From a virus (lineage: Duplodnaviria > Caudoviricetes): a stretch of DNA of 64,000 nt. Made by a program: the position numbers and the translations under genes. The stretch is taken from positions 1-64,000 of the IMG/VR virus record IMGVR_UViG_3300014205_000214; one strand, written 5' to 3'. Below the pieces are notes generated by a model. The model was not told the origin of the DNA and made no database searches. It worked only from the letters and a program-made list of their open reading frames with translations. Below, piece after piece: positions 29,913 to 60,949 of this stretch. Positions within the stretch are counted from its first letter, which is position 1. Every line of letters starts with the position of its first letter.

Positions 29913-31687
29913 TTTAAAAGTTCTCTAATCTCTTTTTCTCTAGCTTTAATTTGATCAAGTTCTTTTTTAAGTTCTTCTATTTTTTCTTGTGAAAGAACCT
30001 TATTATTTAATGGAACAGTCATATAACAATATCCATTATAATGATAAATTCCATCATAAGCATGACAAAATTTCTGTTCGCTACCCAAAATACCACTCTG
30101 AGACATAATATAATCATGAGCTAGGCTTCTAGAAAGAAAAGCTTTATGAAAAACATTAAAGCCATTACCTGTTTGAAAATCAGTATTCTGTAATACTACT
30201 ACTATATCCATATTAACTTGACCCTTGCTTAAAGATTTTATCTCTGCTACCGCCCAAGCTAATTCTTTCCAGGAATTTTCTGAAGCAACCACGAATGATT
30301 CTCCAAATTTTTCATAAACAGTAAAACTATTACCGGTTTCAACTATTAAGTAGTTTGGATTATTAGTTGTTCTGATAATCATTATACTTTTCCATTAGTT
30401 TTTCATAATGTCTCTCTCCTGTTGGAGTTAACCCATTATTATCCCAGTTTTGATAACGATCATGAAATTGTTGTAAATCTTGCCAAAAATAAATAGAATG
30501 GCCCTTATATTCATTTTTTAAATAATCTTCAATATTAAGTATCTGATGAACAAAAGCATGTTTTGGTAAAGTTTCTGGATTATTACAACATCTTCCAACA
30601 GCACACATATTACCTTTTCTATTGATATATTCGCAACCACCAGATGGGCTTAATGATCTTTTTGTGACATCTTGATAAGTGTTTTTTGTTTCGTTAATAA
30701 TTTGTACTTTTAGCATTACAATCTCCTAATTTTATTAATATCTATGCCATAAATCTTTAATAATTCAGCTACAACAGTTCCATAACATGGTAATCCAACA
30801 ACCGTACCATTTCTTCTATATTCTTCCCACATACAAATAAAACCAATAGCGTCTTTTAAAGATTCTTCATTTAAAGCTTCTTGAATAGCTTGGCTTAGGG
30901 TTTTTATTTCGTTAAGTGGTTTCATTATTTTCTTCAGTCAGGGTATGAGAAATCGAATCTCTACTACGACCACCAGCTATTTTAATATGTAGTAAATGCT
31001 TATAAGACATTTTGCTGGTAATACCCTGTTATACTAACACCTAGTAATAAAGCTACTACTTTCTGTTTTTTCACAAAAAGTAATTTCAATATATGGACCT
31101 GAATAAGCACCTTTAATCATATTGTAAAACTTTAGCCATTCAGGAGATTCTTGCAAATTAATATAATGACTAACATTTAGTTTTACTTCCATCCTAGCAA
31201 CAAGCTTATCAGCATTTCTTATATCAAAATTCTTATCACTAGTATCCCAAATTTCTACTTTAATATTCACTTTTTATTCCAAACCTTACGATTAATAATA
31301 TTATTAAAATGATCCTCGTTAAAACTAAGCTTTTCAGCCATATATGAAAAATATGTTCTAGGAGAACTACTACCCACATAAGAGTTCATATAGCCAACAT
31401 ATTTAACATTTTCTAAACAAACAGGAAGAATAATAAGATTCTTTTTAAGATTCCAATATTGATCTCCCCATCTATCTAAATCTTTAATTACTGATTCACA
31501 ATCTTCTTCAAGAGCAAGGGCATAAAAACACTCACTATTATTAATATTGTTGATTAAATAAGGAAGATTATTATCATTCAATGGGAACGTTTGAAACGCC
31601 GAATATAATTTCCCGTCATTAACATGAAAAATCTTCCAAGCATCTATTTTTTCAACTGATACTTTAAATTTTCTATATAAGCACATA

Positions 31688-37454: not shown

Positions 37455-37766
37455 TTAAATATTCTCTCCAAGAAAATTAAACTTCTTTTCTTTATAATAT
37501 TGCTCGATAAATTGTTCAAGATATTTTTCCAAGTCTTTATCATAACAGGAAACTCTAACATCCTGCTGTCCAGAACCATTACACCAATCACATTCTCTAT
37601 AACTAAAATGGTAATCGTAATCAGCTAATCTTCCATGACCTTTGCAATGAATACATTTGGTTTTCTTATTTTCTACTGGTTTAGGAAAACAATTAACAGA
37701 CCAAGTAAATTTATTACCTTCACTATCTTGAAAAATCATTTTACCACCAGACAACTTCATCAACAT
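37455..37766 (-). CDS. DnaJ-type zinc-finger protein
   Basis: CIHCKGHG and CDWCNGSG repeats. Confidence 0.65.
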   Translation of the reverse strand: MLMKLSGGKMIFQDSEGNKFTWSVNCFPKPVENKKTKCIHCKGHGRLADYDYHFSYRECDWCNGSGQQDVRVSCYDKDLEKYLEQFIEQYYKEKKFNFLGENI

Positions 37767-38091
37767 TTACATCTAGTTTCTTACCATTTCTTTTTACAAC
37801 TACTTCAACAGATAGTTCCATATCAGCATCAGTATCGTCGTCATAAAGATCTGGAATTTCAAATTCTTCAGTAACAATTCTAATTGATTTACAAACAGGG
37901 ACACCACAAATTTCAGATAGTGGCTTATTAAGATGTTTAGCTAAATCTTTTAGAACTTCTTTTCCATCGCTACAAAGTTCGTCATATAATCCGTTATTAG
38001 AAACTTCCTTAAAAATCTTTTCCAACATCAAACGATCTTTAGATTTAGCCATAATATATCCTAATAAGAAAACAATACAGAAATGTATAAG

Positions 38092-38165
38092 TGAAACCAG
38101 AAGGATTCGAACCTTCAACCTACAGAGTAGAAATCTGTGACTCTATCCATTTGAGTTATGGTTCC
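38092..38165 (-). tRNA. tRNA-Arg (anticodon UCU), CCA not encoded
   Basis: GGAACCA/TGGTTTC acceptor stem, D arm ACTC/GAGT, anticodon arm ACAGA-TTTCTAC-TCTGT, T arm GAAGG-TTCGAAT-CCTTC. Confidence 0.93.
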
Positions 38166-38169
38166 ATAA

Positions 38170-38285
38170 ATTAAGAGTATCTGGGAAAGATTCTATGAGT
38201 GACTGCTGAATAAACCCTTCCCGAGATACTCTTAATAATCTAGTTTTTAAGCTAAGTCTTTCGACCGGCGTATTCAGCTAGATTA
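38170..38285 (-). ncRNA. candidate structured RNA (two hairpins with loop-loop pairing) immediately 5' of tRNA-Arg
   Basis: 8-bp stem 38236-43/38278-85 with GAAA sub-hairpin; 13-bp perfect stem 38170-82/38224-36 extended by G-U pairs on minus strand; GCTGAATA/TATTCAGC complementarity between the two domains. Confidence 0.55.
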
Positions 38286-38671
38286 CAAACTTACAGTATC
38301 TTCAACAACCTTCTTTTCAGGCAAACTTAAGTTATTCTTCTTAAGAACTTCTAAGGCAAAGACAGTTCCCTCAAGAGAATTCCTTTTACCTTGAACAACA
38401 CTTGAAACAGGTGTCCCTTTTTCTGCCAATAGCTTAGCTACTGCTGAGAAAACCTTATTTTGACTCTTAAAACCAGATTGTTCGTGCATTTCCTTAAGAT
38501 TCTTAAAACCTCCCTGACCTAGCTTATCGAGAGCATCAAAGATATTTGAAACCTTGATATTTCTGCCAGCGTCCAAATCTAGAGCACTAGCAAATTGTTC
38601 CTTAACAGCCTTCAAATTTTCAGCAAACATAATTAAACCTCCAAAAAAGTAGTGAAACAAACTATACTAAT

Positions 38672-38699
38672 ATTATACACCGAAACTATCATTTGTCAA
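38672..38699 (-). promoter_or_regulatory. sigma70-type promoter (-35 in LDK codons)
   Basis: TTGACA-N16-TATAAT. Confidence 0.8.
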
Positions 38700-53555: not shown

Positions 53556-53665
53556 CAAAACGCTATTGATTACTAAATCATTATCAAAATCTAAAAATTG
53601 CACTTATATTGCACACTAACAGGGCTAAAACTGCCCTTTTGGGTGCGGTGTGACACCACACCTGG

Positions 53666-53740
53666 ATGGGTGGTTAGGTCAACTCTAGAGAGGTACTCAC
53701 AATGGGTGGTAGGGTCAACCCAAAGGAGTGGGTGAACGGG
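53666..53740 (+). repeat. G-rich direct repeats / G-run cluster
   Basis: ATGGGTGGTTAGGTCAAC (53666-83) and ATGGGTGGTAGGGTCAAC (53702-19), 16/18 identical, 36-nt period; GGG runs at 53704, 53712, 53730, 53738. Confidence 0.6.
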
Positions 53741-54143
53741 CGTACACTGGTTTTTTGTACACCTGTCAATTCGACCGCAGAGCAACTCGCGTGCCAATAT
53801 CAAATTGACTTCATTACAAAACATTAACTAAAGTCTACTGCGAAGGATGACGATAAGATACTCAGCGGTCAGCTCGACAGCTAAAACTAAGTGTCCCTGC
53901 CAAAATGGCAAAACGAAAATTCTTAAAAGTAATTGACGCCCTTAAAGGGCTCTAAGGGGAAAACATGCGACATAGACTACTGCCTGGCCCATTGTGGGGG
54001 TTGACTGGTTCGGATAATGTAAGTGTTAGAACGCGACGATTGATCGCAGCGGTTGGCTTGTTGCTGACCGCAGGCTGTGCGGGCGGACGGGTGAGCCTCA
54101 CAACAACCATTCAGAATCACCCGATAACAATTGGAGTAGAATT

Positions 54144-54422
54144 ATGGGAGTTAGAACCGTTGCCGCAAGGGACGAAGCTTTGCGACGTATCGTCGCCCAC
54201 GTCAAAGAGGGATTGACACGCCGCAAGGTGGTAGAAGTTAAACTCGCTCCGCAAGGTTCAATTACCGTTGCGGATGTTAGGCGGTGTTTGAACGCGGACG
54301 GTGTTATCGTCAAGCGTATCGCAGACTCGGAACGATACGTAGCCGCTAGCATGGCAGCTCAAGACGGCTTCGGAATCAACTTGGAGACCACATGGGAAGC
54401 AGACCTGTTAGCGGCTAAATAG
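54144..54422 (+). CDS. hypothetical protein in G+C-rich island
   Basis: GGAG SD upstream of ATG; natural-looking composition. Confidence 0.6.
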   Translation: MGVRTVAARDEALRRIVAHVKEGLTRRKVVEVKLAPQGSITVADVRRCLNADGVIVKRIADSERYVAASMAAQDGFGINLETTWEADLLAAK

Positions 54423-54506
54423 CTTGCTGGCAGTGCTGGTAATCGCGTTTTTTGTGGGCGTGTTGCTCACGAAACATTGAAGTAACTTTTTGAAAGAACT
54501 CTGATT

Positions 54507-55001
54507 ATGTCGAAGATAGCAATGGTTCCAGTAGCGTATGCTCAGAAACTCGGCTTGACCGTCACCACCGGCGAGAAGGGCAACGCAGTGCCTCACAACA
54601 CTGGGCGACCTGTAAAGAAGGTTGACAAGCTTTGGGTAGCCAAGCTTTTGAAGGCCAACCCGCACTTTGCCGACCTGCCTGTTAGTAAGAACGGAGAAAA
54701 CAAGGTGGGCGGGCGAGCCAAAACCGTCGCTCGTTTCGTGGTGGACGCATTCAAGCTTAGCGACGCGCAGGGATACTTGACAATTGGTGACTTGGCTGAG
54801 GTTGCCGGACTCAGTAGCGTCAATTATGGGGCTGGGGCCAAGGAGTTGTCAGCGATTATCGCCAAAATGTGCCTTGCCGATTGCCTGACCGTCACAGGAA
54901 AGGGTCGCACCGCCTCAGAAATGAGCGACGAAACGACCTTTAACCTTGACGATATCGAACTCGAAAACGCCGATGATATCGACCTTGACGACCTGTGCTA
55001 G
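54507..55001 (+). CDS. putative DNA-binding protein (HTH-like motif, acidic tail) in G+C-rich island
   Basis: YLTIGDLAEVAGLS resembles an HTH start; C-terminal DDIELENADDIDLDDLC; followed by terminator. Confidence 0.65.
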   Translation: MSKIAMVPVAYAQKLGLTVTTGEKGNAVPHNTGRPVKKVDKLWVAKLLKANPHFADLPVSKNGENKVGGRAKTVARFVVDAFKLSDAQGYLTIGDLAEVAGLSSVNYGAGAKELSAIIAKMCLADCLTVTGKGRTASEMSDETTFNLDDIELENADDIDLDDLC

Positions 55002-55031
55002 TGCTCGCTTGCAGTAACCGATAACGACCTA

Positions 55032-55066
55032 TTGGGCCAGCCTAAAAACTGGCCCAAAATTTTTTT
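55032..55066 (+). terminator. Rho-independent terminator
   Basis: TTGGGCCAG-CCTAAAAA-CTGGCCCAA (9 bp) followed by T7. Confidence 0.85.
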
Positions 55067-55116
55067 GAAAAAATGAGTACATTTTTTCCTACCGTGTAGA
55101 CATACTCGACAGGGGA

Positions 55117-57348: not shown

Positions 57349-57785
57349 AGGTTTTTATTGATTCCCGAGAACAATATCCATTAAGTTTCTCTTTTTATGG
57401 ATTTGAAGAAGAAGTCATAAAATTAGAAACTGGAGATTACTTCTTTGAAGATTATCCTGATCTAGTTATTGAAAGAAAAAGAACTACTGGGGAAATCTCA
57501 ATGAATCTAAGTCAAAAATGGAAACAGTTTGAAGCAGAACTAATAAGAATGTCTAAATATAAATATCCTTATCTAGTATGTGAATTTCCTCTTGAATATA
57601 TTGATATCTTTCCTGTTAAATCCGGAATACCAACAAATAGGTTTTCTAAAATAAGAATGCCTGGATGGGTTATTAAAAAGAAACTATTAGAAAATTGTGC
57701 TAAATATAATATTAAACTAGTTTTCTGTAATAATCCAGAAGAAGCTCAACAAAAAATTATTGGGATATTACAAGAATGCAATTAG
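57345..57785 (+). CDS. ERCC4-domain nuclease
   Basis: VFIDSREQ, LETGDY, VIERK, FEAELIRM. Confidence 0.8.
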   Translation: MKVFIDSREQYPLSFSFYGFEEEVIKLETGDYFFEDYPDLVIERKRTTGEISMNLSQKWKQFEAELIRMSKYKYPYLVCEFPLEYIDIFPVKSGIPTNRFSKIRMPGWVIKKKLLENCAKYNIKLVFCNNPEEAQQKIIGILQECN

Positions 57786-60700
57786 ACCTAAAGAATTCTT
57801 CTCCGGAATATATTGATAAGGTTAGAAATGATTATAAAAGATATTCTGGATTAATCTTTAATGATGATACAGTTTATAATCCCTTATTAGAAATTCCAAA
57901 AGAAGTAGAAGAACAGCCACACTTATATTATACTTGGCTTTTATCTAGACCAGAATATCTTAATTTCTTTTGTTCAGAATTTCTTAATGTTGAACCATTA
58001 TTCTATCAAGCATGTATTTTAGAAGAACTTTGGAATAGAAAATTTCCAATGTTAATTGGTAGTAGAGGTCTTGGTAAAACCTGGATGTTAGCTGTTTATA
58101 TTATGTTAAGAGCTACTATTCTTCAGGGTAGAAAGATTGTTGTTGCTGGGGCATCTTTTAGACAGTCTAAATTAGTATATGAATATTGTACTCAGATCTG
58201 GAATAATGCTCCTTTATTAAGAAATGCTGTTTCATCATATCCTGGTGATCAAGGTCCAAAGGGTGGTAATGACGCAGTTCACTTTAGAATAGGTGATTCT
58301 ACTGTTATTTTTATCCCTATTGGCTCTGGAGGAACTATTAGAGGTCTTAGAGCAAATGATATAATTGTCGATGAGTTTTCTTGTTTGGGAGAGACAACTC
58401 TAATAGAAACACAAAATGGTCTAGAAAGAATTTCTGATTGTATTGATAGCCCAAATTTAAAACTTTATAATAGATATGGTAATTTAGAAATTCCGGAAAA
58501 AAGAATTAAAACACCTCTAATAGATGTTTATAAAATAGAAGTCAGGAACGGTTATAGTTTTAAATGTTCTTCTATTCATAAAGTATTAACGTCTAATGGT
58601 TGGAAATTAGCCAAAGATTTAACAAATAAAGACTATCTAGTTTTTGAAAACAATTATAAATTCCCAATAAAAGAAATTCAAGGTTTGGATGAAGATATAG
58701 CTGAGTTAATGGGACTTTTAATTTCTGAAGGGTCTATTAATAATAGAAACTATATTTCTATAACAGGAACGTCTAAAGATTTAATGAGCTATTTAGATAA
58801 AAAATATAAATATTTAAATCCTAAAATATATACGAGAAAAGCAAAAATAGATTACAGAGGATGGAATTGTAAAGAGTCTTATAACTTTAATATTCATAAT
58901 ACTAAATTTAGAACAGATTTATTAAATTTAGGACTGGATTATTCAATAGTTTATAATAAAAAAATACCTTGGTCTATTTTACAATCCCCAAGAAATATAA
59001 TTATTAAGTTTTTAAACGGTTTATTTAATGGCGATGGTTCCTGTTTTATTTTTAATGCAAGAAATAAAAAAAGACTAGGAGTTGCTTATTATAGCGTTTC
59101 AGAACAGTTAATAGATGAACTTCAAGTTTTATTATTTAAGCTTGGATATTTATCCAATAAACAGGTTAGAAAAAGTAAAATTAGTAATAAGCCACAATGG
59201 ATGATCAGACTAAACGGAGAATATGCTTACGATCTAGCAAAAGAATTAAATATACCAAGATTTAATGACATTTTAGATAACGAAGAATACGATGTTCACA
59301 AAAGAACTAATTATGTAAATTTTAGAAATGGATATTATTGCGTAGATTTGTGTTATCTTAGTAAAAGCTATAATCTTGGAACTAAATTTAAAAATAAAGA
59401 AGATGCTTTAAAAGCCGTTGATAATTTTTTCGAAAACAATAAACAATGTCTTTTAGTTAAATCTGTTAAAAAACTTAAAGAAAAAGAGCATCTTTATGAT
59501 TTCGTATTACCAGAAACCCATTCTTTTATTGGTAATGGATTTGTTCAGCATAATTCACATAGTAAAGAAATCTTTGAAAATGTTATTGCTGGTTTCGCTG
59601 CTGTTCAAGGTTCTCCACAGGATAAAGTATCAGATAGACTAGAAGAAGACTTTAATAAAATGTTTGGGTTTGATATTTTAGAAAGAAAAGATGATCTAAA
59701 TATATCTAATCAAATTATTATTTCTGGAACAGCATATTACTACTTTAATCATTTTGCTGAATATTGGGAAAAATGGCATAAAATAATTGTTTCTAGAGGC
59801 GATCCTAACAAACTAGAAGAAATTTTTCCAGATGGTATAGAACCAGGTTTTAGCTGGAAAGATTATTCTGTTATTAGAATACCATATGATATTTTGCCTA
59901 GTCAGTATATGGATGAAGGTAACATTGCTAGATCTAAAGCAACATTAAATTCAACCTTATTCCTTATGGAAATGGGAGCAATTTTTTCTAAAGACTCTGA
60001 TGGTTTCTTTAAAGCTTCTCTAGTTGAGTCTTGCGTGGCTTCAGAAAACAATTTAATAGAAAAGTCTTCCGGAGTTGTTAATTTCTTTCCCAGACTAAGC
60101 GGGGATAATGATAAAAAATACTATATGGGTGTTGATACGGCTTCTCAAGTAGATAATTTTGCCATTGTTATTTTAGAAGCCCATAAAGACCACAGAAGAA
60201 TTGTTTATTGCTGGACAACTAATACTAAAGAATTTAAACAAGGTAGAAAATCTGGACAAATTGCTGAAACAGACTTTTTTAGATATTGTTCCGGAAAAAT
60301 TAGAGAACTACTTGTAAGATTTCAAATAGAAAAAATATCAATCGACTCTCAGGGTGGCGGTAGAACTATTTATGAGTCTTTACATGATAAATCTTCTCTT
60401 AAACCTGGAGAGCAAATGATTTGGGAAGCTCTTGAGCCAGGGAAACTTAAAGAAACAGATTCAGAAGAGGGTTTACATATTATTGAACTGGTTAACTTTA
60501 GAAAACAAGAATATACTGTTAGCGCTAATCATGGTCTTAAAAAAGACTTTGAAGATAAGAAATGTTTGTTTCCCGAATATAATCCAGCTATTTTAGCTAG
60601 TTATTCAGGCTTAGAAGGTAAATTTGCAGAGTACATGGAAGATAATATTATCAATATAGAAGAACTTAAAAGAGAATTAACTCTTATAGTTGTTACTTCT

Positions 60701-60949
60701 ACTGCAAATGGTAATGAAAGATTTGATACTCCAGAGAACAAAATAACTGGTACTGAAAAAGGTGCTTATAAAAAAGATAGATATTCAGCTTTAATCATGG
60801 CTAATATGGCAGCTAGACAAGATTATCATAATGAAAATGATTATTCTTCCCGCTCAATTGAACAAATGGCTAATAGATCTCTAGAAACAAGTCAAGCTAA
60901 TTTTATTGGTCCTTCTTGGATTGTTAGTAAACTCAATGATCTATATTAA
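57776..60949 (+). CDS. terL: terminase large subunit containing an intein
   Basis: Walker A GSRGLGKT, Walker B IIVDEF, coupling motif IIISGT, RNase H-like MGVDTA...IDSQGGG...KKDRYSA. Confidence 0.9.
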   Translation: MQLDLKNSSPEYIDKVRNDYKRYSGLIFNDDTVYNPLLEIPKEVEEQPHLYYTWLLSRPEYLNFFCSEFLNVEPLFYQACILEELWNRKFPMLIGSRGLGKTWMLAVYIMLRATILQGRKIVVAGASFRQSKLVYEYCTQIWNNAPLLRNAVSSYPGDQGPKGGNDAVHFRIGDSTVIFIPIGSGGTIRGLRANDIIVDEFSCLGETTLIETQNGLERISDCIDSPNLKLYNRYGNLEIPEKRIKTPLIDVYKIEVRNGYSFKCSSIHKVLTSNGWKLAKDLTNKDYLVFENNYKFPIKEIQGLDEDIAELMGLLISEGSINNRNYISITGTSKDLMSYLDKKYKYLNPKIYTRKAKIDYRGWNCKESYNFNIHNTKFRTDLLNLGLDYSIVYNKKIPWSILQSPRNIIIKFLNGLFNGDGSCFIFNARNKKRLGVAYYSVSEQLIDELQVLLFKLGYLSNKQVRKSKISNKPQWMIRLNGEYAYDLAKELNIPRFNDILDNEEYDVHKRTNYVNFRNGYYCVDLCYLSKSYNLGTKFKNKEDALKAVDNFFENNKQCLLVKSVKKLKEKEHLYDFVLPETHSFIGNGFVQHNSHSKEIFENVIAGFAAVQGSPQDKVSDRLEEDFNKMFGFDILERKDDLNISNQIIISGTAYYYFNHFAEYWEKWHKIIVSRGDPNKLEEIFPDGIEPGFSWKDYSVIRIPYDILPSQYMDEGNIARSKATLNSTLFLMEMGAIFSKDSDGFFKASLVESCVASENNLIEKSSGVVNFFPRLSGDNDKKYYMGVDTASQVDNFAIVILEAHKDHRRIVYCWTTNTKEFKQGRKSGQIAETDFFRYCSGKIRELLVRFQIEKISIDSQGGGRTIYESLHDKSSLKPGEQMIWEALEPGKLKETDSEEGLHIIELVNFRKQEYTVSANHGLKKDFEDKKCLFPEYNPAILASYSGLEGKFAEYMEDNIINIEELKRELTLIVVTSTANGNERFDTPENKITGTEKGAYKKDRYSALIMANMAARQDYHNENDYSSRSIEQMANRSLETSQANFIGPSWIVSKLNDLY
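58382..59554 (+). mobile_element. intein (391 aa) with LAGLIDADG homing endonuclease
   Basis: Starts CLGETTLIETQNG, ends FIGNGFVQHN followed by Ser; LAGLIDADG motifs ELMGLLISEGS and FLNGLFNGDGS; removal restores DEFSSHSKEIF just after Walker B. Confidence 0.92.

Follow-up and report, generated by a model that had tools for sequence, protein, structure and literature searches.

A hairpin lying just upstream of a phage tRNA-Arg gene, here termed H2, is, judged by the base changes among six variants, a conserved RNA structure that is under selection on the sense strand and not as duplex DNA. We explain it best, with about even confidence, as a leaky 3'-end hairpin of the terminator or attenuator type that belongs to the mRNA of an ORFan gene and sits at the boundary of exchangeable gene modules. 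An eye-catching 'structured RNA fused to a tRNA' would with this reading become a testable and more ordinary object, namely a conserved 3'-end hairpin at a module boundary. Rfam lacks H2, a rare RNA element with support from covariation, and the locus hints at how a promoterless phage tRNA may be expressed by read-through.

The locus and its genomic setting

The DNA that we analysed, referred to as the window, comprises the first 64 kb of a 72.6-kb IMG/VR virus record with an estimated completeness of about one third. Its G+C content is ~30%, its genes are oriented along the minus strand up to about 54 kb, and it encodes rIIA, an RNA ligase, a nicotinamide phosphoribosyltransferase and a large terminase. 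Perfect TTGACA-N16-18-TATAAT promoters are found 25 times, 24 of them on the minus strand, where 0.12 would be expected by chance. Based on promoter density, strand bias and gene content, we therefore assign the region around the hairpins to the early part of a large T4-like phage genome, which is rich in ORFans. The 24 minus-strand promoters lie within positions 1-53000, mostly follow the form TTGACAAA...(G)TATAAT and for the most part sit in the end of the preceding ORF without a stem-loop; terminator candidates are nearly absent from the minus strand of the same stretch. When sequencing runs were searched for the locus no RNA run matched, and the sole match, DNA of a landfill metagenome, is the probable source.

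The hairpins are located between two ORFan genes and are followed by a tRNA gene, with the following features:

38672..38699, minus strand: perfect sigma-70-type early promoter, TTGACA-16-TATAAT, driving the upstream ORFan
38283..38630, minus strand: upstream ORFan, 115 aa, without a Pfam or PHROG match
38235..38286, minus strand: hairpin H1, a 9-bp stem with the core TAATCTAG/CTAGATTA and a 34-nt interior
38266-38255, minus strand: mini-hairpin GGTC-GAAA-GACT inside H1, 4 bp with a GAAA cap
38172..38234, minus strand: hairpin H2 as the minimum-energy fold (38236-38170 when the 13-bp version is counted)
38166..38172, minus strand: AAUUUAU, the tail and spacer linking the conserved H2 stem to the tRNA, 4 U in 8
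38091..38165, minus strand: canonical tRNA-Arg(UCU) (ARAGORN; Rfam 64.7 bits)
37741..38052, minus strand: downstream ORFan, 103 aa, of a family that usually stands to the right of the tRNA slot in relatives

The stem of H1 starts in the TAA stop codon of the upstream ORFan (38285-38283), and its arms pair TAATCTAG (38285-38278) with CTAGATTA (38243-38236). H2 is built from a perfect lower stem of 11-13 bp, a bulged C (38223) and an upper stem GGGAAGGGTT/AATCTTTCCC that includes two G-U pairs, giving an A+U-rich stem of 22-24 bp in total with a loop at about 38212-38194. Depending on the number of terminal A-U pairs counted, the gap between H2 and the tRNA measures 4-7 nt. Both hairpins are thus present as an earlier note on this DNA had described them, including the stop codon in H1, the mini-hairpin with its GAAA cap, the 13-bp stem, the bulged C and the two G-U pairs.

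The promoter at 38672..38699 is the last consensus promoter ahead of the hairpins and the tRNA, and a scan for consensus promoters found none between 38672 and 36030. The tRNA-Arg gene does not encode CCA and lacks its own promoter; neither inspection by eye nor the promoter scan revealed a hidden tRNA promoter inside H2 or in the gap that follows it. Pfam and PHROGs gave no informative match for the flanking ORFs.

Fold stability and database searches

The 125-nt stretch comprising H1 and H2 folds with a minimum free energy of -41.4 kcal/mol compared to -21.9 +/- 3.3 kcal/mol for shuffled sequences (z = -5.95; 0 of 200 shuffles as good), while the opposite strand folds more weakly (-37.5 kcal/mol). 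In a 211-nt fold H1, H2 and the tRNA form three independent domains. No inverted repeat in the window is longer than H2, which ranks second in stability among the 70-nt folds of the whole contig and first outside its G+C-rich parts, and in a minus-strand scan for hairpins with a T-rich tail it is the top candidate and the only convincing one. A covariance model of H2 detects a single copy in the 72.6-kb record; no H2-like stem was seen at the other 24 consensus promoters of the window, and no repeat of the H1 motif was found within it.

The only other fold of comparable strength in the A+T-rich part is a hairpin at 31411-31480 on the minus strand (18 bp with G-U pairs, -23.4 kcal/mol). It lies within a 139-aa ORF (31267-31686) and was set aside as a comparable element. 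The strongest local folds of the contig lie for the most part in a G+C-rich island at 53600-55100 (43% G+C versus 30%), in which a classic terminator is located at 55031-55100 on the minus strand.

Among the covariance models of Rfam 15, applied at gathering thresholds and at E values up to 10, the tRNA alone passes and no ribozyme family is matched, in agreement with the previous remark that the structure does not match the hammerhead, twister, pistol or HDV/theta cores. The next-best matches of the H1-H2 stretch are hairpins of the miRNA-precursor type, which score 24 bits against a cut-off of 88. Searches of cultured-phage DNA and tblastn with three neighbouring proteins returned tRNA-Arg matches only or none. 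Scans of IMG/VR with the neighbouring proteins, a protein alignment, the exact H2 arm and the 5' half of the tRNA gave no match, nor did a scan of JGI metagenomes with the protein alignment. A loose pattern of the H2 arms matched at least 113 IMG/VR loci, all of which score 31.6 bits or less, compared to 55-85 bits for true members, and most of which match on both strands; we rejected these loci as chance A+T-rich palindromes. A tighter pattern had 0 matches in IMG/VR and 2 in metagenomes, neither of which is recognised by the H2 model.

Homologues of the upstream ORFan are present in large protein collections, and their contigs, which are metagenomic, led to six distinct H2 variants. These are the window, L003, L004 (identical to L005), L006 (identical to L007, with the same H2 in L008), L130 and L131.

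Covariation and strand preference of H2

The alignment of the six variants contains 22 shared H2 pairs, and 95.4% of its cells are paired. Compensatory changes affecting both sides occur at 7 of the 22 pairs, one of which passes through G-C, G-U and A-U. None of 500 shuffles reached these pairing and covariation values, and sliding the 3' arm by 1-3 columns reduces pairing to 47-63%. A covariance model derived from four variants recovers the remaining two at 69.6 and 55.1 bits. The stretch had been called too ordered for a spacer, and both the z-score of -5.95 and the covariation in the six variants bear this out; the covariation between homologues that had been named as a check is there for H2.

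Over all H2 cells of the six variants 18 G-U pairs stand against 3 A-C combinations, and one G-U pair is invariant (6/6 variants). The excess of G-U over A-C together with the invariant G-U pair argues for selection acting on the sense-strand RNA. The G-U pairs had been proposed to favour the minus strand, and this preference holds both in these counts and in the weaker fold of the opposite strand. The bulged C is kept in five of the six variants. The conservation of this nucleotide and of the invariant G-U pair suggests, from the alignment, recognition by a factor and hence a role beyond that of a generic hairpin. The loop varies freely in length (5-20 nt) and sequence, and the G+C content of H2 is 26-36% with an A+U-rich base.

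In all six variants H2 starts 21 to 80 nt past the stop codon of the ORFan. The 8 nt that follow the stem contain 5-7 U in five variants, in which this U-tract is retained although the DNA beyond is unrelated; with 4 U the tract of the window is the weakest of the six.

H1 and the loop-loop complementarity

H1 is present, in two loop forms, in four of the six H2-bearing variants and absent from L130 and L131. The long form, found in the window and L006, encloses the mini-hairpin in its interior; between the two sequences the closing pair of the mini-hairpin changes from G-U to A-U and its loop from GAAA to TAAA. The short form of L003 and L004 has an 11-nt loop. Because two of the six H2-bearing variants lack H1, the two hairpins are, as far as these contigs tell, not one obligate unit.

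In L003 and L004 the short form is followed by a separate hairpin, H1b (L003:972-1005, L004:660-691), located between H1 and H2. H1b has a conserved A-rich loop of 16 nt, and its stem shows compensatory changes between the two variants (GTT/AAC versus GCT/AGC) as well as different outer pairs.

A pseudoknot between the two domains had been postulated from complementary loop sequences. In the window these letters exist: GCTGAATA (38278-38271) is complementary to TATTCAGC (38212-38205), although the first G of GCTGAATA forms the closing pair of H1, which leaves 7 nt free. Loop shuffling yields a 7-mer or better in 45 of 2000 cases, and the complementarity, a post-hoc observation, is suggestive at most. 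In L006, whose H1 is the closest to that of the window, the partner in H1 reads GCTTAATA without a compensating change in the H2 loop; the best pairing otherwise available there is a different 6-mer (215/2000). Loop-loop pairing in L003 and L004 is not above chance as judged by shuffles. On this comparison the pseudoknot is confined to the window and is not supported by its relatives, so that the complementary letters stand while the conserved interaction does not.

Neighbours of H2 in relatives

The left neighbour of H2 is constant, since the upstream ORFan family is found in all six variants. What follows H2 differs between them:

Window: tRNA-Arg directly
L004 (= L005): tRNA-Arg directly, without its own promoter
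L003: T-run, TTGACA-17-TATAAT, then tRNA-Arg
L131: T-run, TTGACA-17-TATAAT, then a tRNA-like cloverleaf
L006 (= L007): T-run, then a small membrane ORF
L008 (H2 of the L006 type): different DNA starting exactly past the T-run
L130: T-run, a reverse HNH gene, then a promoter and tRNA-Arg

The content thus changes directly after the T-run between relatives, which marks this position as a break point of gene shuffling. The abutment of the structure on the tRNA, to which weight had been given, is real in the window with its gap of 4-7 nt but incidental, as the right neighbour varies in L003, L006-L008, L130 and L131. In L009 the ORFan is present with a different intergenic region that has neither H1 nor H2. 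A distant member on a 183-kb contig, L132, carries in the H2 slot a classic G+C-rich terminator, AAAGCGGG...CCCGCTTT, followed by a T-run, and more distant relatives found via the downstream ORFan have terminator-like hairpins with T-runs ahead of the downstream ORFan gene.

H2 of L003 and L130 is 87% identical while their ORFan proteins share 59% identity, and the upper H2 stem is identical between the window and L131 at a protein identity of 46%. The H2 types thus do not follow the gene tree, a pattern that a recombination joint would produce. The re-use of the same hairpin before a tRNA, a promoter, a homing-endonuclease gene or an ORF offers a view of how the early region of T4-like phages is shuffled.

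Free-standing HNH_2 genes in reverse orientation occupy the H1-H2-tRNA slot in L130 (1326-1787, minus strand), L131 (2063-2578, minus strand) and the P0005 contig, and GIY-YIG genes are located near the slot in L003, L004 and L131. To judge from its gene content, this intergenic slot is a homing hot spot. L130 (1192-1262) and L009 (1331-1400) have, behind the same ORFan family and in place of H1, an alternative conserved 3'-UTR segment that comprises the hairpin GGTTCTAAC...GTTAGATAACC and, in L130, a second hairpin.

H2 as the proposed end of a transcription unit

A constant ORFan, a sense-strand hairpin and a U-rich tail with variable DNA beyond make up, as read from the compared contigs, the layout in which a transcription unit ends. 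In two relatives, L003 and L131, a promoter is found directly behind H2. In the window, transcription starting from the promoter at 38699 would read through H2 into tRNA-Arg and the next four or five genes; read-through is needed here because no consensus promoter lies between 38672 and 36030, and the U-tract is the weakest of the six. RNase P would then cut at the 5' end of the tRNA and leave an ORFan mRNA ending in H1-H2, an end that would shield the message from 3' exonucleases, with H1 acting as an accessory 3'-UTR hairpin of variable design. We infer termination or attenuation, read-through, release by RNase P and stabilisation from this anatomy.

The usual intrinsic terminator has a short G+C-rich stem and a small loop. 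Against a terminator, the H2 stem runs to 22-24 bp with a base rich in A+U, its loop measures 5-20 nt, its tail in the window holds 4 U in 8, and the early region is otherwise nearly free of terminators on the minus strand. An efficient terminator at H2 would moreover silence the tRNA in the window and in L004, because the tRNA has no promoter of its own there. A special role of H2 near the only canonical tRNA is conceivable. Together with the conserved bulged C and the invariant G-U pair, the long A+U-rich stem and the scarcity of other terminators on this strand give weight to an RNase III site as a rival and leave some room for an RNA that a protein recognises or that acts in trans.

RNase III is known to need a duplex of about two helical turns. 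The main and serious rival, which we nevertheless rate as rather unlikely, takes H2 for a processing site of the RNase III type that splits the ORFan mRNA from the tRNA and the downstream genes in a T7-like manner. The near-perfect duplex of about two helical turns with its single conserved bulge, a geometry kept in the six variants, is consistent with such a site, as are the read-through required in the window and L004 and the singularity of H2, which is not one of many terminators. However, the U-tract of five of the six variants and the promoter behind H2 in two are features of termination and not of cleavage, and the distant relative L132 has a plain terminator in the H2 slot. We regard it as improbable that H1-H2 is a discrete and stable small RNA, derived from the 3'-UTR or the tRNA leader, which receives its 3' end from RNase P and acts in trans or as a protein decoy, possibly via the pseudoknot. 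The structure is indeed very stable and modular, it matches no known family, RNase P would set a 3' end 4-7 nt past H2, and 7-8 nt of loop-loop complementarity are present in the window. Yet none of the single-stranded stretches that might act as a seed is conserved; the variants have wholly different H2 loops and H1 interiors, the pseudoknot lacks conservation, L130 and L131 have no H1, and the tRNA is not adjacent in every case. A specific version, to which we likewise attach a low probability, is an RNA of ~115 nt with a 3' end made by RNase P, in which the bulged C and the invariant G-U pair would dock a phage or host protein. If true, such a regulatory or decoy RNA derived from a tRNA leader would be of a kind not described for phages, and the hairpin would be of greater interest if it turned out to be a processing signal that a protein recognises, or a stable RNA from the leader, than as a 3'-end hairpin. 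Of the novel ncRNA suggested by the earlier note, a conserved and unclassified RNA structure survives, possibly a processing element in line with the RNase III or RNase P leader also proposed there, but not a pseudoknotted unit tied to the tRNA.

The inverted repeats, in particular the palindromic arms of H1, might also act as DNA, either as a recombination hot spot or as the target of an HNH homing endonuclease. A precedent for homing in a tRNA region is documented for SegB of phage T4 (PMC2330249). Reverse HNH_2 genes lie just behind the ORFan or H2 in three relatives, all four variants without an HNH gene have H1 while the two with one whose DNA was read (L130, L131) lack it, and the H2 types are at odds with the gene tree. 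The 18:3 ratio of G-U over A-C and the invariant G-U pair speak instead for selection on an RNA strand, the correlation of H1 with HNH genes is drawn from few and phylogenetically confounded cases, and L009 lacks H1 even though the 273 bp after its ORFan gene contain no HNH gene; we consider a function at the DNA level very unlikely. A self-cleaving ribozyme or other catalytic RNA in the tRNA leader is hardly credible. It would account for a compact and ordered fold beside a processing site, and this is the one point in its favour, whereas no family matches even at E values up to 10, no unpaired nucleotides are conserved, loops and junctions being the most variable parts, and the hairpins are separable in evolution. 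The proposed self-processing leader finds no sign of self-cleavage in any of this.

Comparison with known systems

H2 resembles intrinsic terminators and attenuators in being a gene-end hairpin on the transcribed strand with a U-rich tract in five of the six variants, a promoter after it in two and a textbook terminator in its place in L132. It differs from them by a stem two to three times longer with an A+U-rich base, by its large variable loop, by the eroded U-tract of the window and by the dependence of the tRNA and downstream genes on read-through. The RNase III hairpins of phage T7 early RNA (R-sites) are inter-cistronic processing sites. Like these, H2 is a long and near-perfect duplex with a small irregularity between cistrons that would leave a protective 3' hairpin; unlike them it has a U-tract and adjacent promoters.

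Species I and II of phage T4 are located downstream of tRNAs and are tRNA-like substrates of tRNA-processing enzymes. Both are stable small RNAs of the T4 tRNA cluster (PMC2330249). H1-H2 is likewise a structured non-tRNA RNA encoded next to a phage tRNA-Arg, where homing endonucleases have invaded the region, but it lies upstream of the tRNA, is not tRNA-like and is part of the preceding mRNA.

PeSLs are composite cassettes in which T4-like phages join a terminator to a promoter (Arbiol et al. 2010, PMC2839356; Comeau et al. 2014, PMC4122927). They form a repeated family within one genome, often with polyG/polyC stems that overlap a promoter (PMC2839356, PMC4122927). The setting of H2 is similar, with an early ORFan-rich region of a large T4-like phage, consensus sigma-70 promoters and, in L003 and L131, a stem-loop beside a promoter; H2 also lies at a break point of gene content, and its sequence type is exchanged across lineages. 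In contrast to PeSLs, H2 is single-copy in the 72.6-kb contig, A+U-rich and without a promoter after it in the window. It thus lacks two defining features of PeSLs, repetition in the genome and, in the window, the promoter.

A tRNA-like cloverleaf and a possible terminase insert

A tRNA-like cloverleaf is found in L131 (1995-2068), behind the consensus promoter, and in L009 (1411-1484), and it is missed by ARAGORN and by the Rfam tRNA model. Its acceptor stem has 7 bp, its anticodon loop reads CTTCTAA (UCU, Arg) and its T-stem has 5 bp; the T-loop is non-canonical (AGCGTAA / GGCAGTA), and four pairs covary between the L131 and L009 copies. The L131 copy adjoins the HNH endonuclease gene. As SegB of T4 recognises the canonical T-loop motif (PMC2330249), the altered T-loop could, by analogy and as speculation, represent a form that escapes a homing endonuclease.

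The large terminase subunit of the window (57776-60949, plus strand, 1057 aa) has endonuclease/HNH-like matches at residues 255-491, between terminase-like parts. These matches may reflect an intein or, alternatively, a homing endonuclease domain inserted into the terminase.
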